From an uncultured archaeon (GTDB taxonomy: Archaea; Iainarchaeota; Iainarchaeia; Iainarchaeales; JAAZKV01), in the NCBI GenBank assembly GCA_964551375.1, contig CAZKBG010000002.1, forward strand, positions 15,558-47,557: a stretch of 32,000 nt of DNA, given 5' to 3'. Positions 7,278-26,515 of the stretch are shown here, piece by piece (position 1 is the first letter of the stretch; every line of letters begins with the position of its first letter). Below the pieces are notes generated by a model. The model saw only the letters and a program-made list of their open reading frames with translations. It searched no databases and was not told the origin of the DNA. A program made the translations under genes and the position numbers.

Positions 7278-8833
7278 GGCTTCAGACAAAACTTGTAATT
7301 CTATTTTTGCTGATGGTTATTCTGCCAATGATGTTTTTATCCACTTTTTTAATTGAAAATGCGCACGATATTTCAAAGAAAAAAGTTTCACAGAATCTGA
7401 TAGGCATTTCGGAATTAAAGAAAGCAGAACTTGAGATGTTTTTTGATGATGTTTCAAAAGATGTGCTGTTTCAAAGCGAGTCAGACAAAATAATTGATTC
7501 AGTGGTAATTCTATCAAAACCTGCTGGCGCAGCTTCTTCAAATGAACTAAACAGCTCAAAAGAAACTCTGTTTGACACTTTTGTTTCGCATAATTCAAAA
7601 TTTGGAATAATATCAGTCGATATATTTGACCGATTTGGGAACATGATTTATCAGCAAGGGGCGGAGAATAACAACGGTCTTAATCTTAGCTATGATTCGG
7701 AAGCGGTATTTAGAAACACAAAAAGAGGAAATGTTTTGTTTGAAGACATTTATGACGACAATATTAATCCACAAAAAATGCTCGGAGTTCTTGCATCAGC
7801 TCCTGTTTATGATGATACTGACAGACTCATTGGGTTTGTCGTATATAAAATATCAATAAACCGCGTGAATTTGATTGCATCAAACTTTAACGGACTTGGA
7901 GAAACAGGCGAGATTATTTACTCAACAGCAAAGGCAAACAAGATAATTTTCCTTTTCCAGCCGAGAAATTATACCGGAGCTTCATTTGAAGGGGATTTTG
8001 TTCTCGGCTCGCAATATGGGATTGCAACACAGAATGCGCTAAAAAAAGAAGTTGGGTTTGGTGAAATTATTGATTACAGACGCGTTGAAAGCGTTGCTTC
8101 GTGGAATTATATCAGCCAGACAGGATGGGGGCTCGTGGTAAAAGTTGACAAAAAAGAAGTGTACGCTGAAGTTGACAATCTTGTTAATGCAACAATTATA
8201 ATAATTATTACATTCTGCATATTCATAGGGCTATTAATTTTTGTTCTTTCACGCTCTATTGCAATGCCGATAAATAATCTTTCAAAAAGCATTTCTTTAA
8301 TTACAAAAGGCCAGTTTGACGTTCAAATAAAAAGATCCGAGCTTACTGAAATTGCAGGGCTTGGGGATTCTATTGAAAGAATTCTTTCAAGTCTAAAACT
8401 TGCGATGCTGCATTATGACATATCAAAAGAGGAACTAATGCTTGACGATGCTGTTAAATTAAAAAAGAAAGCAGAAAAAGAATTTGAGATGGAGAAAATA
8501 TTTTTGGAGAATTTAATCAACACGCTCCCAGATCCGATATTTGTAAAGGACAGGCAGCACAAGTGGATTTTACTTAATAATGCCTTCTGCAAATTTATGG
8601 GGTACAGGCGCGAAATACTTCTTGGAAAAAGCGATTATGATTTCTTTCCAAAAAAAGAAGCGGATGTATTTTGGAAAAAAGACGAGCTTGTTTTTACAAC
8701 AGGCAAAGAAAATGTCAATACTGAAAATTTTACCGATGCTAAAGGACAAACTCATAAAATTACCACTACAAAAAGGCTTTGCTCTTATGGCGAAGGAGAA
8801 TATGTTATTGTGGGATTAATTAAAGAAGAATAA
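7274..8833 (+). CDS. Sensor protein: TM, extracellular double-Cache-like domain, TM, HAMP, coiled coil, PAS; no kinase or other output domain
   Basis: TM1 is 'LVILFLLMVILPMMFLSTFLI'. Cache-like blocks are 'LGVLASAPVYDDTDRLIGFVVYKISI' and 'SWNYISQTGWGLVVKVDKKE'. TM2 is 'ATIIIIITFCIFIGLLIFVL'. The HAMP-like segment is 'AMPINNLSKSISLITKGQFDVQI...IAGLGDSIERILSSLK'. The PAS-like segment is 'LENLINTLPDPIFVKDRQHKWILLNNAFCKFMGYRREILLGKSDYDFFP'. The ORF ends right after the PAS. Confidence 0.75.
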   Translation: MRLQTKLVILFLLMVILPMMFLSTFLIENAHDISKKKVSQNLIGISELKKAELEMFFDDVSKDVLFQSESDKIIDSVVILSKPAGAASSNELNSSKETLFDTFVSHNSKFGIISVDIFDRFGNMIYQQGAENNNGLNLSYDSEAVFRNTKRGNVLFEDIYDDNINPQKMLGVLASAPVYDDTDRLIGFVVYKISINRVNLIASNFNGLGETGEIIYSTAKANKIIFLFQPRNYTGASFEGDFVLGSQYGIATQNALKKEVGFGEIIDYRRVESVASWNYISQTGWGLVVKVDKKEVYAEVDNLVNATIIIIITFCIFIGLLIFVLSRSIAMPINNLSKSISLITKGQFDVQIKRSELTEIAGLGDSIERILSSLKLAMLHYDISKEELMLDDAVKLKKKAEKEFEMEKIFLENLINTLPDPIFVKDRQHKWILLNNAFCKFMGYRREILLGKSDYDFFPKKEADVFWKKDELVFTTGKENVNTENFTDAKGQTHKITTTKRLCSYGEGEYVIVGLIKEE

Positions 8834-9056: not shown

Positions 9057-9299
9057 TTACTGCTCTTCAGAATCGCTAGAGTCTGAGTCAGATGGGCCTC
9101 TTCCGCCGCCTCTAAAATCAGGTCTTCTAGTTGGTCTATCGTTTTTGTGCTTCTGGTAGCAGTCTCTGCAGTAAACTGGTCTTCCTTCAATTGGCTTGAA
9201 AGGAACTTCAGTCTCTGTTCCGCAGTCAGAGCATGTTGCCTTGTGCATTTCTCTTGGGCCGCCGAAGCTAGGCCTACTTCCAAATCTTCTATTATCCAT
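9057..9299 (-). CDS. CxxC-x17-CxxC zinc-ribbon protein with RG-rich N-terminus and RGG/acidic C-terminal tail
   Basis: 'CSDC-GTETEVPFKPIEGRPVY-CRDC' has exactly 17 residues between the Cys pairs. Flanks are 'RRFGSRPSFGGPR' and 'RRPDFRGGGRGPSDSDSSDSEEQ'. A strong SD 'aaggtga' lies 6-7 nt upstream of the ATG. Confidence 0.8.
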   Translation of the reverse strand: MDNRRFGSRPSFGGPREMHKATCSDCGTETEVPFKPIEGRPVYCRDCYQKHKNDRPTRRPDFRGGGRGPSDSDSSDSEEQ

Positions 9300-9618
9300 T
9301 TATTTTTCACCTTATGTTCAAAAAAGCTAATACATCAGCAAGACGCTTTTGAGGGCATCTAATGCTTTATTATAGGGCTTTCTGTAAGAAAATTATTGGG
9401 CGAAGGGGGTTATAAAGGTTTGGAAAGGGGGTAGCCGGCAAAGCAAAATCGCTTATAAGTAACTCTTTACAGTGAAAGGAAGTTTTTTATAAGGTTTTTT
9501 ACAGAAATAATATAGAATAGCGTGGGATAATTTTTGAATCGGCGCTGTTAGCGCTGTTTTAAGTTAAGGGAAAAATTAGTGAAATTAGAGTGAAAGTTAG
9601 TGCAAGTTTACTGATGTG

Positions 9619-9792
9619 ATGAAAATGGCAGAAAAAGATGTTCAGCTTGGAATGATAATAATTGTTTTCGCGACATTTTTCTTTCTCTCGGGAGTGGACA
9701 TGCTTAGAATAAGAGTATTTGACGAAGGATTCAGCATGTTTTTAGCATTCATTTTAGTCGCAGTCGGCGTTTATATGGTGACAAAAAAGTAA
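9619..9792 (+). CDS. Small (57 aa) two-TM membrane protein; below the ORF-track length cut-off
   Basis: Hand translation gives 'MKMAEKDVQLGMIIIVFATFFFLSGVDMLRIRVFDEGFSMFLAFILVAVGVYMVTKK', stop TAA at 9790-9792. Two clean hydrophobic helices with a charged loop. It lies 137 nt upstream of the giant ORF on the same strand. Confidence 0.35.
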   Translation: MKMAEKDVQLGMIIIVFATFFFLSGVDMLRIRVFDEGFSMFLAFILVAVGVYMVTKK

Positions 9793-9929: not shown

Positions 9930-12900
9930 GTGATAAAATTGGGGCTATATTCTGGGCTTGAAGGTAAGTGGTACGACTTTTTAGATGCTTTAGACAGGGT
10001 AATCCCTGTTTATGCAATCATTAATCCAATAGAGAAAGTAGTTCCAAGCTTTCCGCTATTTATTGTTGTACTTATACTTGTAATTTTAGGATTATTCTTT
10101 TTCTTAGGCGGAGGATTAAGCTTTGGAAGCTACTCGCTTGAACTTACAGTTCTTGACAAAAACGGGGACAGCGTCAGCGATGCGCTTGTGGAGCTGACTC
10201 AAACATGCGAAAATTCCGAATTGGATAATTTATCCGTGACTACAAATGATGAAGGGAAAGCTTTTTTTGAGCCGTGCGGACAGGCAGTTGAAATAAAAGT
10301 TACAAAAGCAAATTTTACAAAATTTGAAGGGACAGTATATCTTCCTGAAGACTCAAAGAAAAAAGTTACTCTTTCAGAACTTATTTTTATTGACAAAAAG
10401 CTAAAAGTCACCATTGTTGACGATGTGGGCGATTATATCTCAAAAGCAAAACTTTCCATGGCTTGCATCAGAGGAGGAAGCGCTTCAAAAACAGAAGTAA
10501 AATCCCCTCTTCCTGATAACTACCAGCCTTCAGGAGGATTTGAAATTGACGTGAACGGAAACTGTGAAGGAGTACGGCTTGAAGCAACTGCAAGCGGGTA
10601 TGAAACAAAAACAGTTTCAGTATTAAGCGATGAAACAACAAAAACAATCAAGCTTGAAAAAATAATTCAAAATGGAAACGCAAATTTTGCAACTGACAGC
10701 CCAATCGGACCGCAGGTTAGAACAGAAATATTAATAAGCGGAGAAAATAATTTTGAAAGGACATTAATCACACTAATTGACGGAAGCGTTGAAGCAACAC
10801 TTCCCCAAGGGCACTACACATACTCTGCCATAGTAAAAGGATTTGTTGAAACAGGAAATTTTGATGTGACTGCAAATGAAACAACCGATGTTTCAATTTA
10901 TTTTAGCGAATTAATTAATAATATAAATGACGACCCGACAAACCCTGAAGTAAAAAGCTTTTACCTAAAATTAGTTGACGGAAATACAGGTGTAAATCCT
11001 GCTGATTTGCAGGTATTTGTTCTCAAAGGAAATGATGTGAATAAATTAAGATTACTAAAAACAGACAGGGCTGGAATAATACAGCCTTCGCCTATAAACG
11101 ACACTAACGGAAAAACTTACAAAGGGCTTGCAAAAGCGGAAGGGTACAAGAAAAAACCAATTGATGTTGAGGTAAGAACATTTTCGCAGGGGCCTCAGAA
11201 TGTAACAATGCAACAGGGCGGAGCAACGTTAACTCTAAAAATTGTGGATGACTTAAATGCCCCTATAAAAGAAATAGTTCCAAAAATATACTTTGATGAC
11301 TTTGACGGGGTATTTGACCTGCTTGCCCAGACAAGCACTGCTGGAATTACAACTTATCGCGGACTTCCGAACGGGAATTACATAATTACTGCAAGCACAG
11401 CGATTGAAGAAGGCTCGCTATCCTTCAGTGTAAACGGAACCGATCTTGAACTAACACTTGTTTTATCAAACGCAAAAGGAAAACTGGATTTGGCGATAAA
11501 TGACGAATATGAAAAAGCAAAAGTTGAAATAAATTACGCTGTGGAGAAGAAGTTCGGCGATGAATTCAGCGAAGTGTTTAAGGGAATTTCATTTAACGGC
11601 GACGGAAACACTCCTTTAATCAATGCCGGAAGCTATGTGAGAATATTAATAGACGAGCCTGGTTTTTTGCCTTATGAAAGCTTTGTTTACCGAATCAACC
11701 GCACAACATCATCAAGCGGAAAAGACAAAACAATGTTTTTGAAGAAAAAATCCTCCCTTCCAAACCAAAAAGAACTGCAGATGATGCTAAGAGAAATTTA
11801 TTCAAGCAATCCAATAACAACCTCTGAAACAGTTTCTAATATTCTCCAAAAAGGGAAAAGATACTATCTTCTTTTTGACCTTGTTTTAAACAATAATCAA
11901 AGCCTGCCTGTTACAATCAGCGCATCAGTTGAACCGACTGAAACCGCTCTTTCAAAAGGAATGCGAATACAAAGCGGATACTCGGTTAACGGCTCAACTT
12001 ATGTGCTTTCTTCCCAGCCTACTTCATTTTTAGCGGACACAAATCTTGTTGATGCTGACGCTAAAAAAATAAATATAGTCATTCCTGATGCAAACGGGCC
12101 AAAAGTAATTCCGGTATTAATTGAATTTACTTTAGATGCCAACGCAACCGGAAAGCAGAAGCTGTTTTGGAAAGTAAAACAAGGCGCTAACGAAAGCCTG
12201 CAATACTCAAAAGAATTTGAAGTTGACAAAGCAATCTGCATGCCAAATAAAACAACCTGCCCCGATGTTATGTTCCTAAATTATTTGAACTGGAACAATA
12301 AAGGATGGGTGCTTATTGACGATTCGACAAAGAAAGTACAGCTTGGAGACACTTATGCTATAAAAACAATAGCGCAAAATATGGGTGATAAAGAAATAGG
12401 GACTGTTAACCTTACTGAAGAGCTGACTGCGTCTGATGCCCAGTACTTCAATTTAATTGACAACGGCGTTGACAAAAATTCAATGTTTAAAGTTGTGAAT
12501 GTAAAACCTCTTGAATTAACTGACGCGGTTGTAACAACATTAAATCTTAAAAAAGTTTCAGGAGGAGGAATCGGAGTAAAACAATCCCTGCGAAAGCCAG
12601 GGACTGACCAGAGCTTACTCGCGCTGAAAGGAAATCCAGACACAGGGGTAAGGCTTCAGGTTCAAAACAAGAAATTTGTCCAAATAAAAATATTTGCGAC
12701 AAATGTTCAAAATACAATATACGAAGGGGGAGTGTATCCTTACTTCTTTGTGAAAACAACTTTGAGCGAAACTGTGGCAGGATCAGGATATCCTGTTAGA
12801 GCAACATGGTCCGCAAAACTTGAAGGAAGCGACACTTATCTACCCTCAATGAGCGCAAGGCAGACTGATGAAAACGGAATTGAAGTTACAAGCTTTGACG

Positions 12901-15900
12901 CATCAAATCTAAAAATAGGGGACAGGGTTGTATTTGAAGCAATTGATGAAAATAATTCAATTCCAGTAAAACTTACTGTGACAGTAAAAACTGCAATAGA
13001 AACTCCTCCAGAAGAACAGCCTGAATGCCTAAAAGTAATGGTTGATGGAAGAGATGTTACTGGCATTGAATTTCCTACAAAAGAAATGGATGTGTCAATG
13101 CCTTCATCAATTTCCGTATTCTCCGCATGCGAAGAAAATAGGGATGTTGGAGTGTTAACAGACCTTCAGCAGTTAAGCCCCACAAGATTTATTATAAATC
13201 CAAACACAATGTACTCAATTTCGCTTGACGCAAACGATGTTGTAACCACACGCAAAGGAATGCTTGGAGTATACCCAGTTCAGGTAATTGCATTTGAAGC
13301 TGAAAAATACCACCAAGTTGACATGGTGGATATGATTGTAAGGGACAGAACCGCTCCGTTTGACATAAATTACCCTATTTTTGATTTTAGACAGGCGCAG
13401 ACTATCGCAAGCAAAATTATAAATAAAAAATACGCTGGCAGACAGGATGTTTATCTTCCAAGAGTTGAAATGGACGAGCCCGGAATTGAAATAACTTACA
13501 GAAAAAACGGGGTTCCAAGAAAAATTAATTTTAAAATACAAGTTGAGACAAAAGCGCTTGAAGCAATCACAATAGGATACTTAATATCTCAGGGGCTGAC
13601 TCAAACAAAAACAGGGAGTTCATGCGCTGGAGTTGCTGTTGGAACATTTTACGCGCCAGGCGCTAACGAAAGCGAATATTTTAAACTAAGAAGCGAATTG
13701 AGCTCGGTTTGGAGCGGAGTAGTAAGCAAATTCCAAAATAAAGGCACTGCTCCAAGAACTGACACAACCGCGCTAAATAGAAGCAGAACAGTTCCATTTT
13801 ATTCCCTTCCAAAAGAAGTGCAAAGCGAAATAATCTCAACGCTTTATAACGAAAGCGGATCATCTTCTTCCGTAACAGGAAGCGGACAGCTTGAAGAAAA
13901 TGAAAAAGTTGCAAAAGCATCATTTGCTTTGCAGGATTTGCCTCTTTCAAATAACACAAGTCCAGTTCATCCTGTAGTTGGGGCAATTTATGAAACTTAC
14001 CCTGATGTAATAGGACAGCCGAATGTGATGCCAAGAACATGCTATGAAGTAAGAAAAAATTGGACACTTACCCCTCTTCCAACGCTTGCTGATTATGATA
14101 TTGTAAATAACTGGAATACTGTTATTGAAGACAGCAACGGAAGATTATTTGTTGAATCAATAAATAAATGCACATACTGCGATATACTTTCATTTGGTTA
14201 CTTTGATAGCCAGTCGCTATCTTCACTTGTTACGACAAATGGAAGCACACTTGATAACTGGTATGGTGGGCATACTAATAACTCGGGGACAATAAAGCTA
14301 AGGCATGAGTTAATCAGAATAATGACGCCTGTGATTGAAAGAACTGTTACTTGGGATAAAAATGTTGAAATAATTCCACAGGAAGGGAAAATTTATGACC
14401 TTGGGGATTACAGCAGCAGCGTAACAAGCCTTATTCAAAAGTGGCCAAATAGCGTGACTTATAATGGAAGAAGCCCTGGCGATGTTTGGACTGAAGGGAC
14501 GACAAGAGTAACATATGCTGGCTCAATAAATGACGGATTCATACCATTTAGCTGGGCAAAGAAAAATGGAGTTGGCTATGCTGTTCCTGATGTGAATATT
14601 CCTTCTGTTGAATTTTATGGAGCAGACGCTTACGGAACAAATCAGTGGAAATACAGTAAAATAAAAAGCATACCAGCTGAAGCAAGCGGAGTAAGATTAT
14701 TTTTAAATAACAAACACCTTTACGGAGAATATATCGGGACATACAAGCAAACTCCTACTGGATATGTTATTGACAACAGAGGAGTAATTGATAGCAATGT
14801 AATTGATTTTAATATTACAAGAGCTGAATTTGCTGGCTCAAAATATGCAATAATTAAAGTAACCGACTGGGTTTCGGGAACGCAAAAAGTTACAAGAAGC
14901 TTCCAAGTAAGACTTGTCGGAAGCGAAGCCAACTGTTATAGTCCTGAAGGATATGAGGGAGTAAGCGGAGCAGAGTTCCAGACAAGACTAATGTACGATT
15001 GGGACTGGGCAAAAATTGCTCAAAACCAGTGCGACTTGGGGAATATGTCTTACACTTACTGCGACGGCGCGCAATTTAGCGTAAGCCTTATGAAAAAACT
15101 AATGCTGATTGATAATTTACTAAAAACAGGCGCACGAGAACAAATCCCGACTCACACAAGTTTTTACTCCTACTTAATCAAAGACAATTACTCGCAAGGA
15201 CTGCTTGATGATTTTGATGAATACTACTCAGGAGGAGCATTTACAACAATTGGATTCAATACTGTTGGGGATAATTTAGGATTTGACCAATTTATCAGCG
15301 AAAATAAAATAAGTTTTAGAGTCAGAGATGCTGAAGGAAATGTAACTGAAACTGGACAGCTTCCTTCAGGCGGAATATACCGAGTTGAAATAGATTTTAA
15401 TCTTGAAAATCAGAATATTAATTCACTGATGAAAAATGATGGGCCTAATGCGAGAATAATTGTTACTTTTTCAAAATATGCTTCTCCTCAGACAAACAAT
15501 CCGTTTTATGAAATTCCATTTGACGGAGAACTTGGAAAAGTGGGCAACACTTATGGAAGAAGAGAATATGGAATTGGAATAAGCGACTTGAGTCTAAAAT
15601 TAAACAGCGCAGGGACTATGGCTCTTCCTGCTGCAAATCCGATGAAATCAATTACTTATGTTACTTCAGAACAGCTTGATAAATTAAAAAACGGAGCTGT
15701 GCTTTACTATAATGAACTTGCGAACAGGCTTGAGTTTTATCCTCAGCAGCCGACTCCGGTAGTTATGAGCGTGACAGGAGCTCCTCCAACAGTTACTGCT
15801 GAATATGATTTGCTTGGATTTGACAGAACGACTCCTATGAAAAAAGAATGGATAATGAAATCATCCACAATCGGGGATAAGTGCACTGACTTTTCTGGAG

Positions 15901-16301
15901 AAAGAAAATTATTGTTTAATGAAACTGTTAACGGAACAAAAAGGACAATTTCTTGGACAAACACTGCGGAGAGTGGAAAAGTAAACCTTGCAACAATCTT
16001 CTTCACCGCGCCAAATAAAGACACAAGCGTTACAAGACAGGCTGGAAGCACAGTAGTTGAACTAAAAACAACAAAGAAAGCTCCTGGACTTGTTAACGGG
16101 CCTTCAATAAAACTAAGCTATTATGACACAAGCGGAATAATTGGATATGATTCGCTTCAGTGGGTATTTGACCAGGTAAAAGCAGGAAATATGTGCATGA
16201 CAAAAGACCCTAAAAATGAAATAAGAGTATGGTGGAGACCAACATACCTTGACTCATTAATTAAAGACGTTGATGTTGATGTTACTTCATGCGGCGAATA
16301 A
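9930..16301 (+). CDS. Giant (2123 aa) N-terminally membrane-anchored surface protein P1: about five CarboxypepD_reg-like beta-sandwich modules, a long beta-rich ectodomain, and a C-terminal module shared with the next ORF
   Basis: Uninterrupted 6.4-kb ORF with a non-ATG start (GTG 9930 or TTG 9939; in-frame stop at 9918-9920). N-terminal 'KWYDFLDALDRVIPVYAIINPIEKVVPSFPLFIVVLILVILGLFFFLGGG' contains one TM. Repeated ~85-aa modules such as 'LELTVLDKNGDSVSDALVEL...TNDEGKAFFE' and 'ATLTLKIVDDLNAPIKE...GLPNGNYIITAS'. No catalytic motif recognised. Confidence 0.8.
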   Translation: MIKLGLYSGLEGKWYDFLDALDRVIPVYAIINPIEKVVPSFPLFIVVLILVILGLFFFLGGGLSFGSYSLELTVLDKNGDSVSDALVELTQTCENSELDNLSVTTNDEGKAFFEPCGQAVEIKVTKANFTKFEGTVYLPEDSKKKVTLSELIFIDKKLKVTIVDDVGDYISKAKLSMACIRGGSASKTEVKSPLPDNYQPSGGFEIDVNGNCEGVRLEATASGYETKTVSVLSDETTKTIKLEKIIQNGNANFATDSPIGPQVRTEILISGENNFERTLITLIDGSVEATLPQGHYTYSAIVKGFVETGNFDVTANETTDVSIYFSELINNINDDPTNPEVKSFYLKLVDGNTGVNPADLQVFVLKGNDVNKLRLLKTDRAGIIQPSPINDTNGKTYKGLAKAEGYKKKPIDVEVRTFSQGPQNVTMQQGGATLTLKIVDDLNAPIKEIVPKIYFDDFDGVFDLLAQTSTAGITTYRGLPNGNYIITASTAIEEGSLSFSVNGTDLELTLVLSNAKGKLDLAINDEYEKAKVEINYAVEKKFGDEFSEVFKGISFNGDGNTPLINAGSYVRILIDEPGFLPYESFVYRINRTTSSSGKDKTMFLKKKSSLPNQKELQMMLREIYSSNPITTSETVSNILQKGKRYYLLFDLVLNNNQSLPVTISASVEPTETALSKGMRIQSGYSVNGSTYVLSSQPTSFLADTNLVDADAKKINIVIPDANGPKVIPVLIEFTLDANATGKQKLFWKVKQGANESLQYSKEFEVDKAICMPNKTTCPDVMFLNYLNWNNKGWVLIDDSTKKVQLGDTYAIKTIAQNMGDKEIGTVNLTEELTASDAQYFNLIDNGVDKNSMFKVVNVKPLELTDAVVTTLNLKKVSGGGIGVKQSLRKPGTDQSLLALKGNPDTGVRLQVQNKKFVQIKIFATNVQNTIYEGGVYPYFFVKTTLSETVAGSGYPVRATWSAKLEGSDTYLPSMSARQTDENGIEVTSFDASNLKIGDRVVFEAIDENNSIPVKLTVTVKTAIETPPEEQPECLKVMVDGRDVTGIEFPTKEMDVSMPSSISVFSACEENRDVGVLTDLQQLSPTRFIINPNTMYSISLDANDVVTTRKGMLGVYPVQVIAFEAEKYHQVDMVDMIVRDRTAPFDINYPIFDFRQAQTIASKIINKKYAGRQDVYLPRVEMDEPGIEITYRKNGVPRKINFKIQVETKALEAITIGYLISQGLTQTKTGSSCAGVAVGTFYAPGANESEYFKLRSELSSVWSGVVSKFQNKGTAPRTDTTALNRSRTVPFYSLPKEVQSEIISTLYNESGSSSSVTGSGQLEENEKVAKASFALQDLPLSNNTSPVHPVVGAIYETYPDVIGQPNVMPRTCYEVRKNWTLTPLPTLADYDIVNNWNTVIEDSNGRLFVESINKCTYCDILSFGYFDSQSLSSLVTTNGSTLDNWYGGHTNNSGTIKLRHELIRIMTPVIERTVTWDKNVEIIPQEGKIYDLGDYSSSVTSLIQKWPNSVTYNGRSPGDVWTEGTTRVTYAGSINDGFIPFSWAKKNGVGYAVPDVNIPSVEFYGADAYGTNQWKYSKIKSIPAEASGVRLFLNNKHLYGEYIGTYKQTPTGYVIDNRGVIDSNVIDFNITRAEFAGSKYAIIKVTDWVSGTQKVTRSFQVRLVGSEANCYSPEGYEGVSGAEFQTRLMYDWDWAKIAQNQCDLGNMSYTYCDGAQFSVSLMKKLMLIDNLLKTGAREQIPTHTSFYSYLIKDNYSQGLLDDFDEYYSGGAFTTIGFNTVGDNLGFDQFISENKISFRVRDAEGNVTETGQLPSGGIYRVEIDFNLENQNINSLMKNDGPNARIIVTFSKYASPQTNNPFYEIPFDGELGKVGNTYGRREYGIGISDLSLKLNSAGTMALPAANPMKSITYVTSEQLDKLKNGAVLYYNELANRLEFYPQQPTPVVMSVTGAPPTVTAEYDLLGFDRTTPMKKEWIMKSSTIGDKCTDFSGERKLLFNETVNGTKRTISWTNTAESGKVNLATIFFTAPNKDTSVTRQAGSTVVELKTTKKAPGLVNGPSIKLSYYDTSGIIGYDSLQWVFDQVKAGNMCMTKDPKNEIRVWWRPTYLDSLIKDVDVDVTSCGE

Positions 16302-19300
16302 AAAACAAAAAAACGGGTAAAAAAATGGCTAAAGAAAGAAATAATTCTGAAGAATATCCTGATTATAAAACAAGTTACGCTGCCGAAAACGCTGAAGGCG
16401 GGTTTCCTATAAAAAAACTGCTGGTAATTGCGGGGGCAGTTGTAGTAATAATAATTATAGCAATACTTGCAATAAACCTTCTTGGGCAGACAAATAACGC
16501 GCTCTTTTATGATGTGTTTGGAAATATTTTGGGCTCAAAAGTTAGCATCTCAAAAGACGGGAAATTAATCGACTCATTTAACACTGACGGGGATGTGCTT
16601 CATTTGTCGGGAAACCCAAACGGGGATATTGATGTGGCAGTAAGACCCGGGAGCATATTATTCTCAAACAAAAATATTTCAGTCAATCTAAAATCAGGAG
16701 GAAAAATTGTAGTCAAAACAAGCCAAAGCGGAGCGGTTTATGTTGATGAAAATGGAATAGTTCATGTAATAATTAACCCACTTGAAGACTTAAATATCCC
16801 GGGGCATTACGATGACGAAACAGGCGAATTTATTATTGACGACCCGAATGTGGAAATTATTATAGAATATGTAATAGACGATCCAGACAGCGGCGAAACA
16901 GTAATTGTTGAACTTGAAGCGGATTTATCACTTTTAGAATCCCAGCAGGACGGATGCCTTTCATTAAGCAAAACAATGGTGAGAGATGTTACTCACTACG
17001 GAACACTTGAAACACCGACTACAATAAAATTACTTTGCGAACCGCAGGGGGAAATAGTAGCATTGCTTGAATGGAAAAGCGAAAGAATGGGAAATGTTGA
17101 AGTGGTATTTGGAAATTATTCATCCTCAACCCTTCTTGAAAAATATGAAAAGCCGATATTAATGCCAAAAGATTATTCTTACAATGCAAAAATAATTTAC
17201 ACTCCATTTAAGGAATTTGCAGGGCAAAAAGCGCAGTTCAATGTGAATATTCGATACGAAGCAAGCAAAGGCTCAATACAATTTGACGTCGCAAATGACA
17301 ATCTTGAACAGTGCATTGGAATAACTCCTGAAAAACTTCTTATCCCAAAAGGACAGGATGAAACTTCTATTACAATTGACGCTTCCACATGCCATTCTGA
17401 AAAAATTGAAGTATATCTCTGCGACGGCGACAGCGGATGCACTGGAGGCGCGCCAGAAGGGCAGATTGGAGTAGAACAACAAATGTTTGTATTAAGCCCA
17501 AAATCAAATCCTAAAAAAACAATCACTCTCTCAAGAGTGGATTTGCCTGGAGCTTATGGAATTACAATTCACGCAAGAACACCAAAAGCTGACAAAATAT
17601 TAATCGGAGAAGAAACACTAATTGTTGAGCCAAACGGAACAGAAGAACTTACTCCTGATAAATTTGTAATATCTTTAATGGGCGGAGCAAAAGACTCAAT
17701 GAGAATAACAAATACTTCCTTAGCTGAAGACATTGATGTTGACGCGTCAATTTGCTCGGTGTACAAAAATTCGCTTGGAACAATAGCCGAAAGCGAAGCA
17801 GGAAGCAATTACGGAATGGGCTTTCATAATGTGAGCGTATACTCGCAATCCTGGTGGAAAGACTTAAGGACAAGCTCGTCTAAATTTTCAGGAGACGGAA
17901 AATACCAAGCCGCTTTTACTAACACACTTGTTGAAATTGATTACCTTAGATACATAGCGCAGGCATACTCCGCAGAGAAAAATTACAAAATCAAAAAATC
18001 TTACATGGACCTAAAAGGAATGCCTGTAAAAGCGCAGATTTTGGTTGACGAAGCTGCGGTTGGAGTAACTAAAGCGCAGGATTTGAAAGATAAAATGGAC
18101 GCGGCGAATGAATTTGCTGAAGCAAATTTTGCGAGCCAGATTGTTTCTACCATAAGTTCTATTACAGGGCTTGCGACAACATATGCAATTCTTCAAATAG
18201 ACCTTACAACCTTGCAGGGGTATATTGAGACAATTAATGCCTGTCCGCCAGCAGTAGCTCCTTTGAAAGTTGCTACTCAAGCGCTTGCAAGAGCAAACAG
18301 TTCTACTGCAGTAAATGTAGCCACAGTTGCTGAGGGGATAAGCGCGGTAAATAGTATTTATTCAATATATCAAAATGTTGACAGCGTGACAAAAGAGACT
18401 GATGAAATAAATGCTACTGGCGCGCTTGAAGAAGCTAAAAACGTGCAGTCAAAAATAAAGGATGCAAAAAGCAAAATTGACAGTGCAAATAAAAATGTCT
18501 CGCTTGCGCTTGGCGAAGCCTCAATTGATGAATTCAAAAAATCTTCCGAACAAGACTATAAAGCAGAGGAATATTTGCGAAAAGCAAGAGAGGATATGCT
18601 TGATGCAAATGCGCTTTTAAAAGAAGCATTAACTTCGCAATTAAAAGCGAATGATTTTATCACAACAGTGCTTCCTGAATTGCCAAGCACCTCAGACACT
18701 GTTGTTCAAGGAGTTCAGCTTTTAGTTCAGCTTGTTACAATGCTTGGGATTGTTCATACACAAAGCGCCTTGATACAGGAAGCAATAACTGAAACATCCG
18801 CCGCAATGAAAGCCACTACAAGCGCTGTTGCCAGCGGGTGCAGCGCAGTAGCAACTTCAGAAGCATGTTGCCCTGTAATAGGCACTGACACAATGGCTGA
18901 AATAGAAGTGTCAAAATTACAGGCAAATTCTGCACTCTCTGTTGCAAGTGCATTATCAGTGCTTAACGCAGTTCAAACGGTATACTCAGCTTTTAGCACT
19001 TACAACACAATGACAAACGATTACACTGAACAGTTCAATAAAGTAAACGAGCAGTTCTCAACAAATGTTCAGGATATTTATGATATGCAGGATGAAGTAA
19101 AGCAGAGCCTAAAGAGCCTGCCTGAAGGAATTGACGCCGCAGAGTGGCTTGGGGATAAGGAAACGCAGGCAAGCAAAGCCGCAGGATACAGTTCAATAGT
19201 TGATTTGCCTGAAAGCTATAATAAAGAAAGACTCACAGGGCTTATTGGAACTGCTTTGATAAACGGATTTGTAAACGGGGCATACATCGGAGGAGTGTAT

Positions 19301-21520
19301 AATACAAAAGACACTACTTTTACAACAAGCGCTTCAGCGCTTAATACTGCTGCAAAAGAAAAAGATGCTAATACAAAAAAAATAAGCTTTGAAGAGAATA
19401 ATTTTGGATTAAAAGAAAACTGCGACAACATGGTGAGAATCACAGTTCCTGATTATAAAACAAATTTAATGCAGGACGCAAAACCGATAACAATCTCTCT
19501 TGACACAGTAAATGCAGTGTGGAGCTTTGATGAAGCAAAAGTATTTGATGTATTTGAAAGCCAGGAAGTGGGCGTAATTTTTGCAAATGCAGGGCTTAGA
19601 AAAAATTCTTTTGGAACAGTTGAATTTAAGGCAACTAAACATGAAAACGCAAATCCCTCAACTGTGACAAGCGGAACGTTCGGACCGTTTAATGTTCCTG
19701 ATATTTCACAAAATGAAATTTCGCAAAAATATCACATTAAATTCAATGTTGAGCCGAGAAAGGGGAATACATTCGTTCCTCTTCAGAATAATTTGTGCAC
19801 TAATGAGCTGTTAAGGGGAAAAAGCGGAAGCGCCGCGCTCCCTAATATATTATTTTCTTGGGACTGGAACAGCGTTGCGGGGCTTGGCGCTTTAAAAAAT
19901 CCTATAAAACAAAATACTTTTAGAACTGCAAGAATCGGAACAGGCGAGGGCGAGCCTTTTATTGACGCAGTGCAATTAAGCATACTAATGAGCAAAAAAC
20001 TCGGCGCGTTAAATTCTTTTTTAAGCCAAAACACGCTTGAGTGTCCAACCAATCCTTCAAGATTAATACTTGGCGCGATAAAACCTGTTATTGTTGATAA
20101 GGACGGACAATTTGCCGACAAGGAACTGGAAGATATTGAATTTGACTGCTTTATGCCCTTGACGACAAAAACTTATGACGGCAAGCCGGCTCTTTATTAT
20201 TATTTAACATCCTCTCCGTTAAATGAAGCTCCTGAAGGAATAAGCGACGCCGAGGTTGTGAGCACTGCTGATGAATTTTTAGGACTTGTTGATTTTAATG
20301 CAAACCTTATGAGAGACGGATACGGATTTGACATGCAATATGATTATGCTGACAGCTATTCAAGAAAAATACTTGTTGCTGCGCCGTCATTTTTGGACTC
20401 TTCAACGGGAGCAAAAAAGTTCTTCCTTGACAAAGACAGATTGTTTTACACTTCTGAAGCAAATTTCTTCCTTGCTCAAAGAGCGTGGAATCTTCCTGAT
20501 GCTGGAAAATACAGGGTTAGAATGCTAATTGATTTTGACGGATATCCTGCCATATTTAGAGGCTCTTCGCCTGCTGCAAAAATAAAAGTTGAATTATATT
20601 CTCTTGAGCCTGTAAGCTCAAATTTCAGCCCGTTTTATTACGTGCCAATAGACGGAGCAGTAGGAGCTGAAGTAAACAATAACCGCTACGGATACGGAAC
20701 ATCACTTACTGGGCCTAATCCCGAGCCAATAATGGTTTCAAATACTGATTCAATCGCGCTTGTTTCAAGACAAAAAGATTCGCTTGTAAAGATACTTGAA
20801 ACAAAATTAAGCAGATTTGGAATAGAAAACTACTCGCCTTCTCTTAGAGGAAAAGTAATCACGCTTCAGTATAATTATAATACAAAAACACTTGATGATG
20901 GAAATTCATACTTCCTTTACTCTCCTGTGGTTGGAACTCCTGTTATTGTAAAAGCAAACGGGACTGCTGGAGAGAGCACAGCATATGTTTATTCTTTACT
21001 ATTTAATGGAAGAGAATTTGACCCAGGAACGCAAAATCTTCTTCTTTGGACAGGAGTAAACAGCTGCACAAATCTTGCAGGACAGCCTATAACAAAAAAT
21101 TATAACAGGACAGGGGATTCAGTTCTTGGAGGCGCGTATTCAATAAATCTGCCAAAAAGCGAGGTGGGCGGCTCGACTTTACTAAAAACAGTTGTATATT
21201 CTCCGATTGATGATATGTATGCAATATCAAAGCAAGAAAACGGAGCAATGTACACAACAGGCGAGCCAAATGGTGCTGCAAATCCAGTTGCGCTTGCAGG
21301 AATTACGGGAATGTATGGAAACGACAAAGCAAACGCTTCAGTTCCAAATTATCTTGAAAGAATGTTTGCAAGCGTTGAAAAAGGAGATTTGTGCATTTCA
21401 AGAACAAGCTCAAGAGAATCAATGTGGTGGAGCGAGGAAAGTTTGTTTAAGAAAAGTCTGGCTGGAAAAGAATCTCTTTACCAAAGAGAAGAAGCGCTAA
21501 AATCACAATGCGCAAGATAA
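16289..21520 (+). CDS. Giant (1743 aa) N-terminally membrane-anchored surface protein P2: beta-rich N-terminal part, ~400-aa alpha-helical A/S/T/Q-rich insert, and a C-terminal module homologous to P1
   Basis: Uninterrupted 5.2-kb ORF. The start is either ATG 16289 (13-nt overlap with P1) or ATG 16325 ('MAKERNN'). Single TM 'LLVIAGAVVVIIIIAILAINLL'. C-terminal blocks align with P1 (see findings). Confidence 0.8.
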   Translation: MRRIKNKKTGKKMAKERNNSEEYPDYKTSYAAENAEGGFPIKKLLVIAGAVVVIIIIAILAINLLGQTNNALFYDVFGNILGSKVSISKDGKLIDSFNTDGDVLHLSGNPNGDIDVAVRPGSILFSNKNISVNLKSGGKIVVKTSQSGAVYVDENGIVHVIINPLEDLNIPGHYDDETGEFIIDDPNVEIIIEYVIDDPDSGETVIVELEADLSLLESQQDGCLSLSKTMVRDVTHYGTLETPTTIKLLCEPQGEIVALLEWKSERMGNVEVVFGNYSSSTLLEKYEKPILMPKDYSYNAKIIYTPFKEFAGQKAQFNVNIRYEASKGSIQFDVANDNLEQCIGITPEKLLIPKGQDETSITIDASTCHSEKIEVYLCDGDSGCTGGAPEGQIGVEQQMFVLSPKSNPKKTITLSRVDLPGAYGITIHARTPKADKILIGEETLIVEPNGTEELTPDKFVISLMGGAKDSMRITNTSLAEDIDVDASICSVYKNSLGTIAESEAGSNYGMGFHNVSVYSQSWWKDLRTSSSKFSGDGKYQAAFTNTLVEIDYLRYIAQAYSAEKNYKIKKSYMDLKGMPVKAQILVDEAAVGVTKAQDLKDKMDAANEFAEANFASQIVSTISSITGLATTYAILQIDLTTLQGYIETINACPPAVAPLKVATQALARANSSTAVNVATVAEGISAVNSIYSIYQNVDSVTKETDEINATGALEEAKNVQSKIKDAKSKIDSANKNVSLALGEASIDEFKKSSEQDYKAEEYLRKAREDMLDANALLKEALTSQLKANDFITTVLPELPSTSDTVVQGVQLLVQLVTMLGIVHTQSALIQEAITETSAAMKATTSAVASGCSAVATSEACCPVIGTDTMAEIEVSKLQANSALSVASALSVLNAVQTVYSAFSTYNTMTNDYTEQFNKVNEQFSTNVQDIYDMQDEVKQSLKSLPEGIDAAEWLGDKETQASKAAGYSSIVDLPESYNKERLTGLIGTALINGFVNGAYIGGVYNTKDTTFTTSASALNTAAKEKDANTKKISFEENNFGLKENCDNMVRITVPDYKTNLMQDAKPITISLDTVNAVWSFDEAKVFDVFESQEVGVIFANAGLRKNSFGTVEFKATKHENANPSTVTSGTFGPFNVPDISQNEISQKYHIKFNVEPRKGNTFVPLQNNLCTNELLRGKSGSAALPNILFSWDWNSVAGLGALKNPIKQNTFRTARIGTGEGEPFIDAVQLSILMSKKLGALNSFLSQNTLECPTNPSRLILGAIKPVIVDKDGQFADKELEDIEFDCFMPLTTKTYDGKPALYYYLTSSPLNEAPEGISDAEVVSTADEFLGLVDFNANLMRDGYGFDMQYDYADSYSRKILVAAPSFLDSSTGAKKFFLDKDRLFYTSEANFFLAQRAWNLPDAGKYRVRMLIDFDGYPAIFRGSSPAAKIKVELYSLEPVSSNFSPFYYVPIDGAVGAEVNNNRYGYGTSLTGPNPEPIMVSNTDSIALVSRQKDSLVKILETKLSRFGIENYSPSLRGKVITLQYNYNTKTLDDGNSYFLYSPVVGTPVIVKANGTAGESTAYVYSLLFNGREFDPGTQNLLLWTGVNSCTNLAGQPITKNYNRTGDSVLGGAYSINLPKSEVGGSTLLKTVVYSPIDDMYAISKQENGAMYTTGEPNGAANPVALAGITGMYGNDKANASVPNYLERMFASVEKGDLCISRTSSRESMWWSEESLFKKSLAGKESLYQREEALKSQCAR

Positions 21521-24328: not shown

Positions 24329-26515
24329 TTACTTTTTTTCAACTGGAACCAAAAGTATTTTTGTTCTTACAATCAAATCTCTTTTTGATGGATTATATAC
24401 AATGCTTTTAGTCAGAGCCTGTGATTTTTGATGAGTTCTTCTTTCAAGCTGGCTTAATTGTTCTTTTGTTTCTTCTCTGATCTTTGAGAGTTTGTTTTTT
24501 ATTTTCAGGCTCTTAAATTTTAATGCCTTAATTTTCTTTTCCAAAACATTGATTCTTGCGGTTTTTTCGGCAAGCCTTTTATTTCCAAACAGCTTTCTGA
24601 CAAATCTTTTTGAATTAATGCCCAAAAGAGCGGTTCTTAAAGAATCAATTTTTTTGTTGTTTAATTTTAGAACGCTTAATATTTTTGTTTGCTTAATCTC
24701 CGACTTTTCAAGCAAAAGGCGTTTTGAATATTCTAAATCTTCTTTCATAAATGAATAATTTAATTTAACAACAGCTCCTCTTTTTTCTTCAATCCCTTTA
24801 GTCACCTTGCTTGAATAAACCTTTTTCTTAAGAGAGCGCTGGCTTTGGGATATTGACTCAAAAATCAGCTTTTTTACGCTTCTTTTTGGATTTAAAACAT
24901 CATAATTATACTTTACAATTTTTTTCCAGTCTGCATTTTGAGGCAATCTGGATTTGGAATTTTTTGCGGACAAATCATAAATAAACGGTTGAGTTGCCGG
25001 AAATATTTTGCCCTTGAAAGGCTTAGGCTCGATGGTAATGCTTAGAAAAGTTTTATACTTTAAAGCGTCTTTTGTTGAAGTGAAAATTTCAGTGGTGTTT
25101 GAATATTTCTGCGATTGTGCTTTTAATCTTTTCAGGACTTTTGATGAATAATCTTTTGGAAGAACAGGAGCTGGCTTTATTTTATCCATTTTTGGTAGTT
25201 TTAACTCTGAAGTTATTTGCGGACGGCTTTTTGCATCATTGACCCACCCGATTTCTTTCTCATTTAAAGGCCCAAAATGATAGCTGTAAACCCACCTTGA
25301 ATGAATTTTGGCATTAATATTTTCAACTGAATTATTATAATAAAAATCCCCTGTGTTAAAACCAAGCAGAGATTGCTTTAGTCCTGTTGTGGAAATTCCA
25401 ATAGCGGTTGAAACTTTTTCAATATCATTATCTGTTCTTAATTTTCCGATAAATCTTGTCCCGATGTTTCCCAATACTTTGTAATCAATATCCCCGGGGT
25501 TCTGCGTGGCTAAAATTATTCCTAATCCAAATGCGCGCGACTGCCGTATCAGCGTTTCAAGAATCTTTTTGCACGGAGGATTTGCGGGAGGCGCAGGAAA
25601 TAAGCCTGCAATCTCATCAATGTAAAGAATATACTTTAATTTTTCAGAGCCTCCTTTGTGCAATAAGAATCTGTAAATTTTGTCAAGAATCTGCTCAACC
25701 GCATACTGTTTGTCTTCAGTAATGCCTGTGAATCTCAAATCAAATACTGAAAGAGTTTTTGGGGCGCACATTTCTTCAATTTGTATGTTGTTTTTTGAAC
25801 GCCACGCCTGCTTTGACGGAGAAGAAAGTATGAGATTTACCGATGAAGCTATTTTTTTCCGTTCAGCTTCTTTTAAAAAATCATCAAGCGAAAGAGTCCC
25901 AAGGTTTTGAAAAGGAGGGTGGATTATCTGTGGTATTAGTGTTTCTAAAGTCAGGTTTTTGCTTTCAAGCCAGCTCTTTAGGATAATTGATGATAAAAGG
26001 GATTTAGACTTTTCTTTGTTGTTTTTAATTTCTGCCAGATTGCAGATTGATTCAGCCAACGGCTCAATAATCATTGTGGCAAGTGTGGGGTCTTTTTCAT
26101 AAGCTTCAATAAAATTTTTTGGGCAGGAAAGATCTGGAATTAAGTTGACTGAAATTCCAATTGAAGATTTTGGAGTGTATATTTTGGTTTTTGTTTCAGA
26201 AAGCTTTTCAAGCCCGCCCAGTTTTGATGAATCAAAATTAGACAAGTAAGTTTTTTGGATTTTTTCAGCGTTTTGCGCAAAAGGACGGAAATCAAAAGTT
26301 TTGCTTACAATTCCAAGCCCCCCTATATCGCCTTTAGGGTCAATTGCAATTATTGGAATTCCGTTTGACAATGCTTCTTCAATAAGCACTTTGCACATAA
26401 CTGTTTTTCCAGAACCCGTAGTTCCAAGAACCGCGGCATGCTGGGTTAAATTATTCAAGTCATAAACTGCTTCTTTTCGGTTTTCAATATTTTTTCCAAT
26501 AAAAGCAGATTTCAT
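24329..26515 (-). CDS. HerA/FtsK-superfamily P-loop ATPase (YjgR/DUF853-like N-terminal ~440 aa) with ~290-aa Lys/Ser-rich, partly coiled-coil C-terminal extension
   Basis: Walker A is 'VLGTTGSGKTV' (about 26402-26425 on +), followed by 'IPIIAIDPKGDIGG'. Walker B is 'YILYIDEIAG'. The block 'ILATQNPGDIDYKVLGNIGTRFIGKL' resembles, from memory, HerA-like YjgR proteins. The C-terminal tail 'KKIKALKFKSLKIKNKLSKIREETKEQLSQLERR' looks like coiled coil. Confidence 0.75.
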   Translation of the reverse strand: MKSAFIGKNIENRKEAVYDLNNLTQHAAVLGTTGSGKTVMCKVLIEEALSNGIPIIAIDPKGDIGGLGIVSKTFDFRPFAQNAEKIQKTYLSNFDSSKLGGLEKLSETKTKIYTPKSSIGISVNLIPDLSCPKNFIEAYEKDPTLATMIIEPLAESICNLAEIKNNKEKSKSLLSSIILKSWLESKNLTLETLIPQIIHPPFQNLGTLSLDDFLKEAERKKIASSVNLILSSPSKQAWRSKNNIQIEEMCAPKTLSVFDLRFTGITEDKQYAVEQILDKIYRFLLHKGGSEKLKYILYIDEIAGLFPAPPANPPCKKILETLIRQSRAFGLGIILATQNPGDIDYKVLGNIGTRFIGKLRTDNDIEKVSTAIGISTTGLKQSLLGFNTGDFYYNNSVENINAKIHSRWVYSYHFGPLNEKEIGWVNDAKSRPQITSELKLPKMDKIKPAPVLPKDYSSKVLKRLKAQSQKYSNTTEIFTSTKDALKYKTFLSITIEPKPFKGKIFPATQPFIYDLSAKNSKSRLPQNADWKKIVKYNYDVLNPKRSVKKLIFESISQSQRSLKKKVYSSKVTKGIEEKRGAVVKLNYSFMKEDLEYSKRLLLEKSEIKQTKILSVLKLNNKKIDSLRTALLGINSKRFVRKLFGNKRLAEKTARINVLEKKIKALKFKSLKIKNKLSKIREETKEQLSQLERRTHQKSQALTKSIVYNPSKRDLIVRTKILLVPVEKK

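Follow-up and report, generated by a model that had tools for sequence, protein, structure and literature searches.

Very large proteins bound to the cell surface have been described in several prokaryotes. In Nanohaloarchaeota, the so-called SPEARE proteins (SVXNc_0300 and BNXNv_0298) are products of single genes, 5,000-9,400 amino acids (aa) long with an embedded VirB4/TraG-like ATPase domain, and giant surface proteins of DPANN archaea have generally been proposed to mediate host contact (PMC10266531). In Apilactobacillus kunkeei, Giant1-5 are encoded by consecutive giant extracellular genes and have in common an N-terminal beta-solenoid related to serine-rich-repeat adhesins (PMC12863079). 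Here we describe a pair of giant proteins, P1 and P2, encoded in a stretch of 32,000 nucleotides (nt) from an uncultured archaeon of the lineage Iainarchaeota (GenBank assembly GCA_964551375.1, contig CAZKBG010000002.1, positions 15,558 to 47,557 of the forward strand), which is hereafter called the window and numbered from its first letter. Two long open reading frames (ORFs) on the same strand, P1 and then P2, occupy positions 9930-21520, together 11.6 kb of the window. Our analysis revealed that the C-terminal module common to both proteins, hereafter also the head, is the signature domain of a real, undescribed family that forms a conserved set of giant paralogues. Iainarchaeota (Diapherotrites) is a DPANN phylum. 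The two genes and the two heads are as follows.

9930-16301, forward strand: P1, 2123 aa with a GTG start, a giant envelope protein with a predicted type II anchor and a P1-type member of the family (ORF and translation)
16289-21520, forward strand: P2, 1743 aa, a giant predicted envelope protein paralogous to P1, of P2-type and without the immunoglobulin (Ig)-like stalk (ORF and translation)
14790-16298, forward strand: head of P1, aa 1621-2123 (503 aa), delimited by hhalign against P2
19556-21517, forward strand: head of P2, aa 1090-1743 (654 aa), delimited by hhalign and by cross-matches of hidden Markov models (HMMs)

The ATG of P2 lies 13 nt inside the end of P1, the overlap including the stop codon, and an alternative ATG is found at 16325.

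The closest analogues of this pair are functional, not homologous. P1 and P2 resemble the SPEARE proteins as very large, cell-bound, Ig-like-rich proteins of a small-genome DPANN lineage with a presumed surface role, and also in having a VirB4/HerA-type ATPase gene nearby, which in nanohaloarchaea directly follows the giant gene (PMC10266531) and in the window lies on the opposite strand, 2.8 kb from P2. This likeness is one of description, and P1 and P2, with 2123 and 1743 aa and no ATPase domain (Pfam, E<=1), fall outside the SPEARE definition (embedded ATPase, >5,000 aa) and come in sets of two or three paralogues with a C-terminal module that matches nothing in the libraries searched. As for Giant1-5 of A. 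kunkeei, the likeness lies in consecutive, very large extracellular genes that occupy a substantial part of a small genome, in one conserved terminal domain common to the paralogues, and in positional homologues that are kept between genomes (PMC12863079); there, however, the domain is N-terminal and belongs to a bacterium of restricted distribution, while the domain of P1 and P2 is C-terminal, cysteine-braced, archaeal and phylum-wide. RTX and other giant bacterial adhesins have the layout of P1, namely a cell-proximal anchor, a long Ig-like run and a distal globular region. In contrast to them, P1 and P2 have no RTX, HemolysinCabind or Big-repeat arrays, no signal for a type I secretion system (T1SS) and no retention module (no Pfam matches); the anchor of P1 is an N-terminal transmembrane (TM) helix and its Ig-like domains have diverged and do not form near-identical repeats; the distal region, variable in RTX adhesins, is conserved in P1 and P2, and their C-terminus is a Cys-containing module. 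The Sulfolobales envelope proteins SlaA and SlaB are not related, and of the two only SlaB has an anchor, at its C-terminus, whereas P1 and P2 are mutual paralogues and both are anchored N-terminally. What the two pairs have in common (PMC10903991) is that adjacent genes encode two large envelope proteins lineage-wide, one of which is beta-rich (SlaA or P1). P2 may resemble SlaB if its variable region, described below, is helical as judged by eye. For S-layer families, no match was found in Pfam, NCBIfam or PDB sequences, and no significant one by Foldseek.

The homology of the two heads is supported by several lines of evidence. The original prediction, made from the letters of the window, named six colinear blocks in the two tails, and all of them are present verbatim, where it had placed them and in the same order, at aa 1687, 1711, 1813, 1841, 1936 and 2084 of P1 (nt 14988-16235) and at aa 1187, 1225, 1404, 1430, 1543 and 1697 of P2 (nt 19847-21430). 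BLASTP of full P1 against P2 gives E 2e-7 with 22% identity over 398 columns (P1 1745-2102 with P2 1336-1714), together with a second, colinear high-scoring pair upstream (E 0.017, P1 1668-1744 with P2 1168-1257). In Smith-Waterman alignment the tails score 144 against 42.4 +/- 6.0 in 300 shuffles (maximum 77), that is z = 16.9, while the shuffle z of N-terminal control regions is -0.36, so the match of the tails is not explained by composition. Moreover the similarity recurs with orthologues (P1 against P0005, 1e-10; P2 against P0001, 7e-10), and an HMM of either tail type finds all proteins of the other type with E 1e-17 to 1e-30, the P1-type HMM reaching the P2-type proteins with E 1e-17 to 3e-25. 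P1 and P2 themselves match the HMM of the other type with E 1e-17 to 1e-25 and that of their own type with E<1e-250. Profile alignment of the tails by hhalign, which the original prediction had proposed as a check, spans 430 columns when built from 3+5 sequences (probability 99.4%, E 4.2e-21) and 477 columns when built from 20+20 (P1 1621-2108 with P2 1090-1720; probability 99.9%, E 9.5e-36). Formal alignment thus finds significant similarity, with E from 2e-7 to 9.5e-36. The low GC content of the window (~38%), the length of the ORFs, and an in-frame stop or frameshift in some relatives might suggest a compositional artefact or ORFs that are not real genes. Considering the contrast between the tails and the controls in the shuffles, the E values down to 1e-35, the 746 clusters of relatives and the structural model with a pLDDT of 91.5 described below, the probability of such an artefact is negligible, and it is effectively refuted.

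The extent of the module had been put at 450-550 aa, which holds for P1 with 503 aa while P2 has 654 aa, and in both proteins the homologous region begins further upstream than was proposed, by ~65 aa in P1 (nt 14790) and by ~97 aa in P2 (nt 19556). The head of P2 has an insert of ~90 aa (aa ~1245-1335, nt 20021-20293) after the first long helix, which is absent from P1. The module is indeed distal, as each protein has a single N-terminal anchor and the head is the chain end furthest from it.

An HMM search, which the original prediction had also proposed, does define a family: 746 representatives of clusters at 50% identity were found at E<=1e-3, and 499 at <=1e-30. These came from an exhaustive HMM search, while word-indexed searches gave only nine relatives. 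In all but a handful of 156 proteins inspected (1,400-3,100 aa), only 0-27 aa separate the end of the module from the C-terminus, and the module is never found outside the context of the giant family; in P1 it ends 1 aa before the stop, and in P2 at the stop. Both P1 and P2 have the full-length profile match, the C-terminal module, the length of more than 1,400 aa and the N-terminal hydrophobic anchor that characterize the family. In 185,579 species genomes (one genome per species), 116 stretches encode such proteins. Almost all of the carriers are metagenome-assembled genomes (MAGs) whose titles read Candidatus Iainarchaeum, Diapherotrites or 'archaeon'. The complete genome GW2011_AR10 (CP010424.1) is also a carrier; a few short carrier contigs labelled Micrarchaeota, Falkowbacteria or Thaumarchaeota are probably mis-binned. 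The nearest relatives, P0013 of P1 and P0029 of P2, have 77% identity in the tail.

Genomes hold two such genes (P1-type and P2-type) or three, usually adjacent. The P1-type and P2-type genes are neighbours in 15 distinct loci, 8 of which are tandem (the window, L016, L017, L019, L020, L022, L023 and L044) and 7 convergent, tail to tail and 15-550 nt apart (L001, L006, L008, L021, L027, L033 and L037), and the Taw1 gene often follows the pair as it does in the window. Where the two are not adjacent, both types are still found in the same assembly, for example in CABMEU01 (L039 and L003) and JAPLVQ01 (L040/L032 and L004), and in two such assemblies the P2-type gene is on another contig. In deeper clades, three consecutive giant genes on the same strand each end in the module (L047, L051, L061, L069, L073, L076, L087 and L088), giving three positional paralogues A, B and C. 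One lineage (L008 and L006) has a full P1-like gene, a second P1-like copy that is split in two genes, and a P2-like gene; the first gene of the split copy encodes 1097 aa (in L006 a partial 779 aa) and the second 1333 aa (1314 aa in L006), with the interruption at 7552-7557 of L008 and 2339-2342 of L006, and this split is genuine, the second gene having a hydrophobic N-terminus of its own. P0001, which begins exactly at the module, was considered as a case of the tail being a separate gene. This was ruled out, because in L001 and L002 a continuous P1-like frame is interrupted, by a single in-frame stop in L001 (1856-1858) and by a frameshift in L002 (~800-950), which are either assembly errors or pseudogenisation. 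A 1994-aa gene after the P2 homologue of L004 (2417-8401, a Diapherotrites MAG) was likewise tried as a cryptic P1 and rejected, as neither BLAST nor HMM comparison links it to the family; to judge from its sequence, it is another, unrelated giant protein at the locus.

Beyond the heads, the third clade of the family, compared by twenty-sequence profiles that were read by their per-window confidences, relates the two proteins over most of their length. Its reference P0081 (2555 aa) is colinear with the entire P1 (P1 5-2109 with 9-2531, E 5e-110 by hhalign), and P2 is colinear with it from residue 182 to the end (182-1743 with 1109-2555, E 8e-158 by hhalign). Because both are colinear with one third-clade protein, P1 and P2 are whole-gene paralogues of one ancestral architecture. 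Read window by window, the Ig-like stalk (P1 1-1000) is common to P1 and the third clade and absent from P2. The following mid-domain is common to all, P0081 ~1109-1526 corresponding to P2 182-600 while P1 retains at least 1100-1199; here P1 1100-1199 aligns with P0081 1368-1454 (mean confidence 6.5) and P2 400-494 with P0081 1354-1447 (confidence 8.6). The region between mid-domain and head aligns poorly with the third clade in both proteins. The direct comparison of the mid-domains, P1 934-1171 with P2 296-481, is weak (probability 45-66%, E 5.5e-5). Conservation among orthologues has the same two peaks in P1 and P2, one in the mid-domain (0.43 in P1, 0.47 in P2) and one in the first half of the head (0.45-0.48 in P1, 0.44-0.45 in P2), and the stretch between them is fast-evolving in both (0.18-0.30). 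At the level of sequence, these alignments show P1 and P2 to be ancient whole-gene paralogues, of which P2 has lost an Ig-like stalk of ~1,000 aa. Read outward from the anchor, the ancestral layout is shown to comprise a mid-domain and a C-terminal module of 500-750 aa, both conserved, with a fast-evolving variable region between them. The claim of the original prediction that the N-terminal two thirds are unrelated is therefore overturned, since P1 aligns with P0081 throughout and P2 from residue 182 on, and the picture of a shared module on two different stalks gives way to one of differential loss and divergence after whole-gene duplication.

The age of this duplication can be seen from the identity of the head core, which is 0.40 within the P1-type, 0.44 within the P2-type and 0.21 between the types, and 0.24-0.26 from either type to the B and C paralogues of the deeper clades. 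As the 21% between types stands against 40-44% among orthologues, the duplication is old and phylum-wide, not local. The proposed paralogy within the operon is thus true as paralogy, though the event itself is ancient and phylum-wide and the pair is convergent in 7 of 15 loci. A recent local event, by which tandem duplication, domain shuffling or gene conversion grafted a mobile module on two unrelated proteins, might be read from the adjacency, common strand and 13-nt overlap of the genes in the window and from the direct BLAST similarity being confined to the tails. It is nevertheless very improbable and effectively refuted, given that the heads are 21-22% identical compared with 40-44% among orthologues in other genomes, that both types and their adjacency recur in at least 15 loci from different MAGs, that full-length profile alignments tie both proteins to one ancestral architecture, and that the module never leaves its family in the 156 proteins inspected. 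Since evolution is slowest in the head and the mid-domain, and since the paralogues are inherited as a set across the phylum despite inversion and dispersal, they most likely work together. As an explanation of the whole, we consider it rather probable that paralogues with a common head and mid-domain cooperate in one surface structure, in which the heads provide a conserved interaction, preferably with each other.

The module itself is marked by four near-universal cysteines, conserved at 96-100% across 148 heads (C1669, C1985, C2089 and C2121 of P1, equivalent to C1170, C1593, C1702 and C1741 of P2), the last of which lies 1-6 residues from the C-terminus. Two further pairs are variable. The pair C1701/C1711 of P1 is found in 80% of heads with co-variation of r = 1.0 and is absent from P2; the pair C1252/C1287 of P2 is found in 63% of heads with r = 0.99 and lies inside the insert that is absent from P1. 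Because the paired cysteines appear and disappear strictly together, they are likely to form disulfides, and the domain is accordingly likely to be extracytoplasmic. The third clade carries both co-varying pairs, which fits the ancestral state.

The family motifs WxW, YxDxxQ, LxxD, YxxPxDGxxG, RxxYG, TP and WW are conserved at 85-100% and present in both P1 and P2, with conservative exceptions such as Y1710 in P1 for F1224 in P2. Near-invariant positions in P1 are W1691, W1693, Y1710, D1712, Q1715, K1722, L1749, D1752, D1761, G1815, Y1817, Y1860, P1863, G1866, R1877, Y1880, G1881, T1942-P1943, Y1959 and W2102. That polar residues (D1712, Q1715, K1722, D1752, D1761, R1877 and D1987) are near-invariant in 148 sequences with 20-25% overall identity could point to an enzyme displayed at the end of the giant proteins, for example a hydrolase or lyase modifying polysaccharide or the envelope. 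One of 38 family members has a match to an Apiosidase-like catalytic domain elsewhere in the chain (E 1.5e-5), and in other small-celled lineages giant genes have been connected with the degradation of cell walls. However, the module has no similarity to catalytic families in Pfam, NCBIfam or PDB and, the structural cysteines aside, lacks a conserved nucleophile of the His, Ser or Cys type, and three paralogous copies of one enzyme would meet no evident need, so we regard an enzyme as quite unlikely.

A model of P1 aa 1658-2123 by AF2 with 38 sequences has a pLDDT of 91.5 and a pTM of 0.88, while an earlier one from 11 sequences had reached a pLDDT of 67.5. The P1 head is divided into a WxW hairpin, a helical subdomain, two beta-rich subdomains and a C-terminal alpha/beta piece. 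Foldseek found no significant neighbour of this model, the best matches being E 0.016 with TM 0.10 in PDB and E 0.0037 with TM 0.13 in BFVD. A class II fusion or fusexin fold is not supported, as Flavivirus E appears at noise level in Foldseek (E 0.04-0.3, probability 0.01-0.05, TM 0.05-0.07). Searches of the module against Pfam (E<=1), NCBIfam, PHROGs and PDB sequences by phmmer and profile returned noise only, for example an HP1 chromodomain with E 0.047, in agreement with the earlier statement that the module is not a named domain. To judge from the model, the fold is possibly new.

The same region could be the ligand-binding head of an adhesin, in which case the paralogues would act independently and present one binding domain, for a surface molecule of a host cell or substrate such as a glycan, at different distances from the cell. 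The order of anchor, Ig-like CarboxypepD_reg repeats and distal globular region would suit such a role, as would a beta-rich module with conserved aromatic and acidic residues (W1691/W1693, Y1710, D1712, Q1715, D1752, Y1860, R1877 and Y1880), and the weak Foldseek matches, none of them significant, are mostly beta-sandwiches of the adhesin, carbohydrate-binding module (CBM) or lectin type (Flo1/Flo5, ClfA/SdrE and CBMs). A role in host contact has moreover been proposed for DPANN giant surface proteins (PMC10266531). On the other hand, no Foldseek match in PDB or BFVD is significant, P2 has no extender, and the module is among the slowest-evolving parts with its motifs kept phylum-wide, which argues for a conserved partner. 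The ligand-binding tips of giant adhesins are usually the fastest-diverging part. An adhesin head thus deserves consideration as an alternative, albeit one of rather low probability, and we still prefer the cooperation of the paralogues in one surface structure.

The remaining parts of P1 and P2 are listed below from the N-terminus on.

10041-10115, forward strand: N-terminal hydrophobic anchor of P1, aa ~38-62, the only segment of P1 with a Kyte-Doolittle value >1.8 (peak 3.2 at aa 41)
10137-10370, forward strand: first Ig-like (CarboxypepD_reg, prealbumin-like) domain of the P1 stalk, aa 70-147; the stalk runs to ~nt 12929 (aa ~1000)
13227-13529, forward strand: core of the P1 mid-domain, aa ~1100-1200, the second region common to P1 and P2, by transitive homology
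16415-16486, forward strand: N-terminal anchor of P2, aa ~43-66, Kyte-Doolittle peak 3.5 at aa 44
16832-18088, forward strand: mid-domain of P2, aa 182-600, homologous to third-clade aa 1109-1526 and the best-conserved part of P2 outside the head
18089-19237, forward strand: variable A/S/T/Q-rich region of P2, aa ~600-983, the fastest-evolving part of P2
19238-19300, forward strand: conserved Gly-rich amphipathic motif GLIGTALINGFVNGAYIGGVY, P2 aa 984-1004, between the variable region and the head

Directly before the anchor of P1 is the juxtamembrane motif NPIEKVVPSF (window 10020-10046, aa ~31-39), which as [DN]PI[DE][KR]VVPSF is found before the anchor in P1-type and third-clade proteins and is absent from P2; by its sequence and position it could be a sorting or partner-recognition signal. 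The first stalk domain matches Pfam PF13620 at aa 70-147 with E 2.1e-8 and 34.8 bits, above the gathering cut-off of 32.3 bits. This match concerns the stalk of P1 and not the shared module, and in P2 no Pfam domain is recognised. Internal-repeat matches by hhalign extend across P1 aa 64-620, and third-clade proteins likewise open with an anchor followed by CarboxypepD_reg. Orthologues of P1, for example gene g1 of L010, are 35-38% identical over the full length, and those of P2 41-42%. The N-terminus of P2 is strongly basic, with twelve K/R in aa 1-43, and with its single anchor it is therefore predicted to be a type II anchor with the N-terminus in and the C-terminus out (N-in, C-out). Across the windows of the P2 mid-domain the hhalign confidence to the third clade is 6.5-8.6, with orthologue identity of 0.46-0.47 at aa 301-500, while in the variable region these values are 0.7-1.7 and 0.18-0.30; the latter region looks helical by eye, and its sole Pfam signal is a sub-threshold Tektin match. 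The Gly-rich motif has the P2-type consensus GL[IV]G[ST]A[IL]xNGF[VI]NGAYxGGVY, the core NGF[VI]NGAY..GGVY being strictly or nearly kept in 20 of 20 aligned P2-type sequences, and its place is taken in several third-clade proteins by one or sometimes two TM-like segments (Kyte-Doolittle 2.6-2.8). The composition of the motif is reminiscent of viral fusion peptides, for which we claim no homology.

Homology, architecture, distribution, paralogue sets and cysteine pattern are demonstrated, and from here on we infer the localisation and the role in assembly. The chains are probably exported N-in/C-out, their N-terminus staying in the membrane, which would make the head an extracellular, disulfide-stabilised (oxidised) domain at the chain end furthest from the anchor. 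The paralogues would act together in one phylum-specific envelope or surface structure, where the heads may mediate the association of paralogous chains in a heteromeric tip or a lattice node, and the different stalk lengths would set its geometry. A heteromeric tip, which the original prediction had also raised, is plausible from the conserved co-occurrence of the paralogues. Several observations weigh against this model. As P2 has no long stalk, the two heads would stand at very different heights if both chains start from the same membrane, unless P1 bends or the variable region of P2 is extended. No P2-type gene follows in at least 6 P1-type loci for which 5.8-10 kb of sequence downstream is available. 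N-glycosylation sequons, counted as a possible mark of glycosylation at the surface, are not enriched (28 in P1 with 21.5 expected, and 14 in P2 with 17 expected). The TM-like segments before the head in some third-clade members could put it across the membrane or in another one, so that N-in/C-out may fail for some members. Besides, the invariant polar residues D1712, Q1715, D1752, D1761 and R1877 could equally mark a ligand-binding or catalytic site.

The genes around the pair in the window are ordinary for archaea, namely Taw1 radical-SAM, DUF2666, PAP2, a Cache-PAS sensor, a Big_12 protein and an ATPase of HerA/DUF87 type. A search near the P1/P2 pair for conserved partners in secretion or assembly gave none, the neighbours in the P1/P2 clade being housekeeping or unrelated genes (Taw1, DUF2666, PAP2 and CxxCxxCC). 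In the deeper clades, genes for small polytopic membrane proteins follow the giant array on the same strand, 4-190 nt later in most loci. They encode about 90-170 aa each without Pfam match and fall in five families, the first present at 21 loci and each of the others at 15-21; none of the five is detectable in the window or in the P1/P2-clade loci. After them come a ~200-aa gene on the opposite strand and a protein of ~510 aa (L058 14407-15894 and 11 other loci), which is a distant relative of the HerA ATPase of the window (hmmsearch E 1.2e-10) with a degenerate Walker A (FGGREHDRRH).

24329-26515, reverse strand: HerA/DUF87/AAA_10 (VirB4-like) ATPase of the window, with the intact Walker A GTTGSGKT, 2.8 kb from P2 and on the opposite strand
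L058 11664-15894 (AR10, CP010424.1), L047, L051, L056, L057, L060, L061, L066, L067 and L069: loci with the small membrane-protein genes
L072, L073, L075, L076, L081, L082, L084, L086, L087 and L088: further loci with the small membrane-protein genes

For the window ATPase itself, BLAST at E<=1e-3 gave no match in the other family loci, and phmmer gave weak matches only in L056 and L029. With these neighbours, a more far-reaching proposal can be put forward, which is speculative and probably goes too far: the module would be the common head of a phylum-wide, heteromeric envelope machine, in which two or three paralogous giant chains are assembled through heads of a novel fold. The chains of the deeper clades would be encoded together with the five small polytopic membrane proteins and the degenerate HerA/VirB4-like protein, the Gly-rich or TM-like segment beside the head would be a membrane-interacting element, and the whole might form an S-layer-like canopy, or else a device for cell-cell contact or membrane insertion.

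Other ORFs of the window are given here for completeness. In the gap of ~1.1 kb upstream of P1, an 80-aa ORF (9057-9299, reverse strand) has a CxxC...CxxC zinc-ribbon pattern CSDCGTETEVPFKPIEGRPVYCRDC and an R/G/D-rich tail, and a 58-aa ORF with two TM segments (9616-9792, forward strand) lies just before P1. A protein of 1093 aa is encoded at 33-3314 on the forward strand; it starts with TTG and may be longer, and it carries four Big_12 Ig-like domains (E 1e-45) but no C-terminal module of the family. It is probably another surface protein. A membrane sensor at 7274-8833 on the forward strand combines a dCache-like region outside the cell with a PAS domain in the cytoplasm and has no recognisable output domain.

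Iainarchaeota are uncultivated DPANN archaea with small genomes, and literature searches returned nothing on giant proteins of this phylum. In the literature and libraries searched, we found no description of the domain, of its probable new fold or of the conserved set of paralogues. The biology as such is not of a new kind, since symbionts with reduced genomes are already known to have giant surface proteins. What our results add is an extensive family of anchored giant proteins, with 746 clusters at 50% identity, that is almost confined to the phylum and kept as sets of two or three paralogues, and whose most conserved part is a cysteine-braced domain of ~500 aa outside Pfam and NCBIfam. The module can serve as a marker domain for the phylum, and P1 aa 1621-2123 and P2 aa 1090-1743 are defined constructs for structural and binding studies. 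Altogether, the family is a concrete candidate for the main surface structure of Iainarchaeota.

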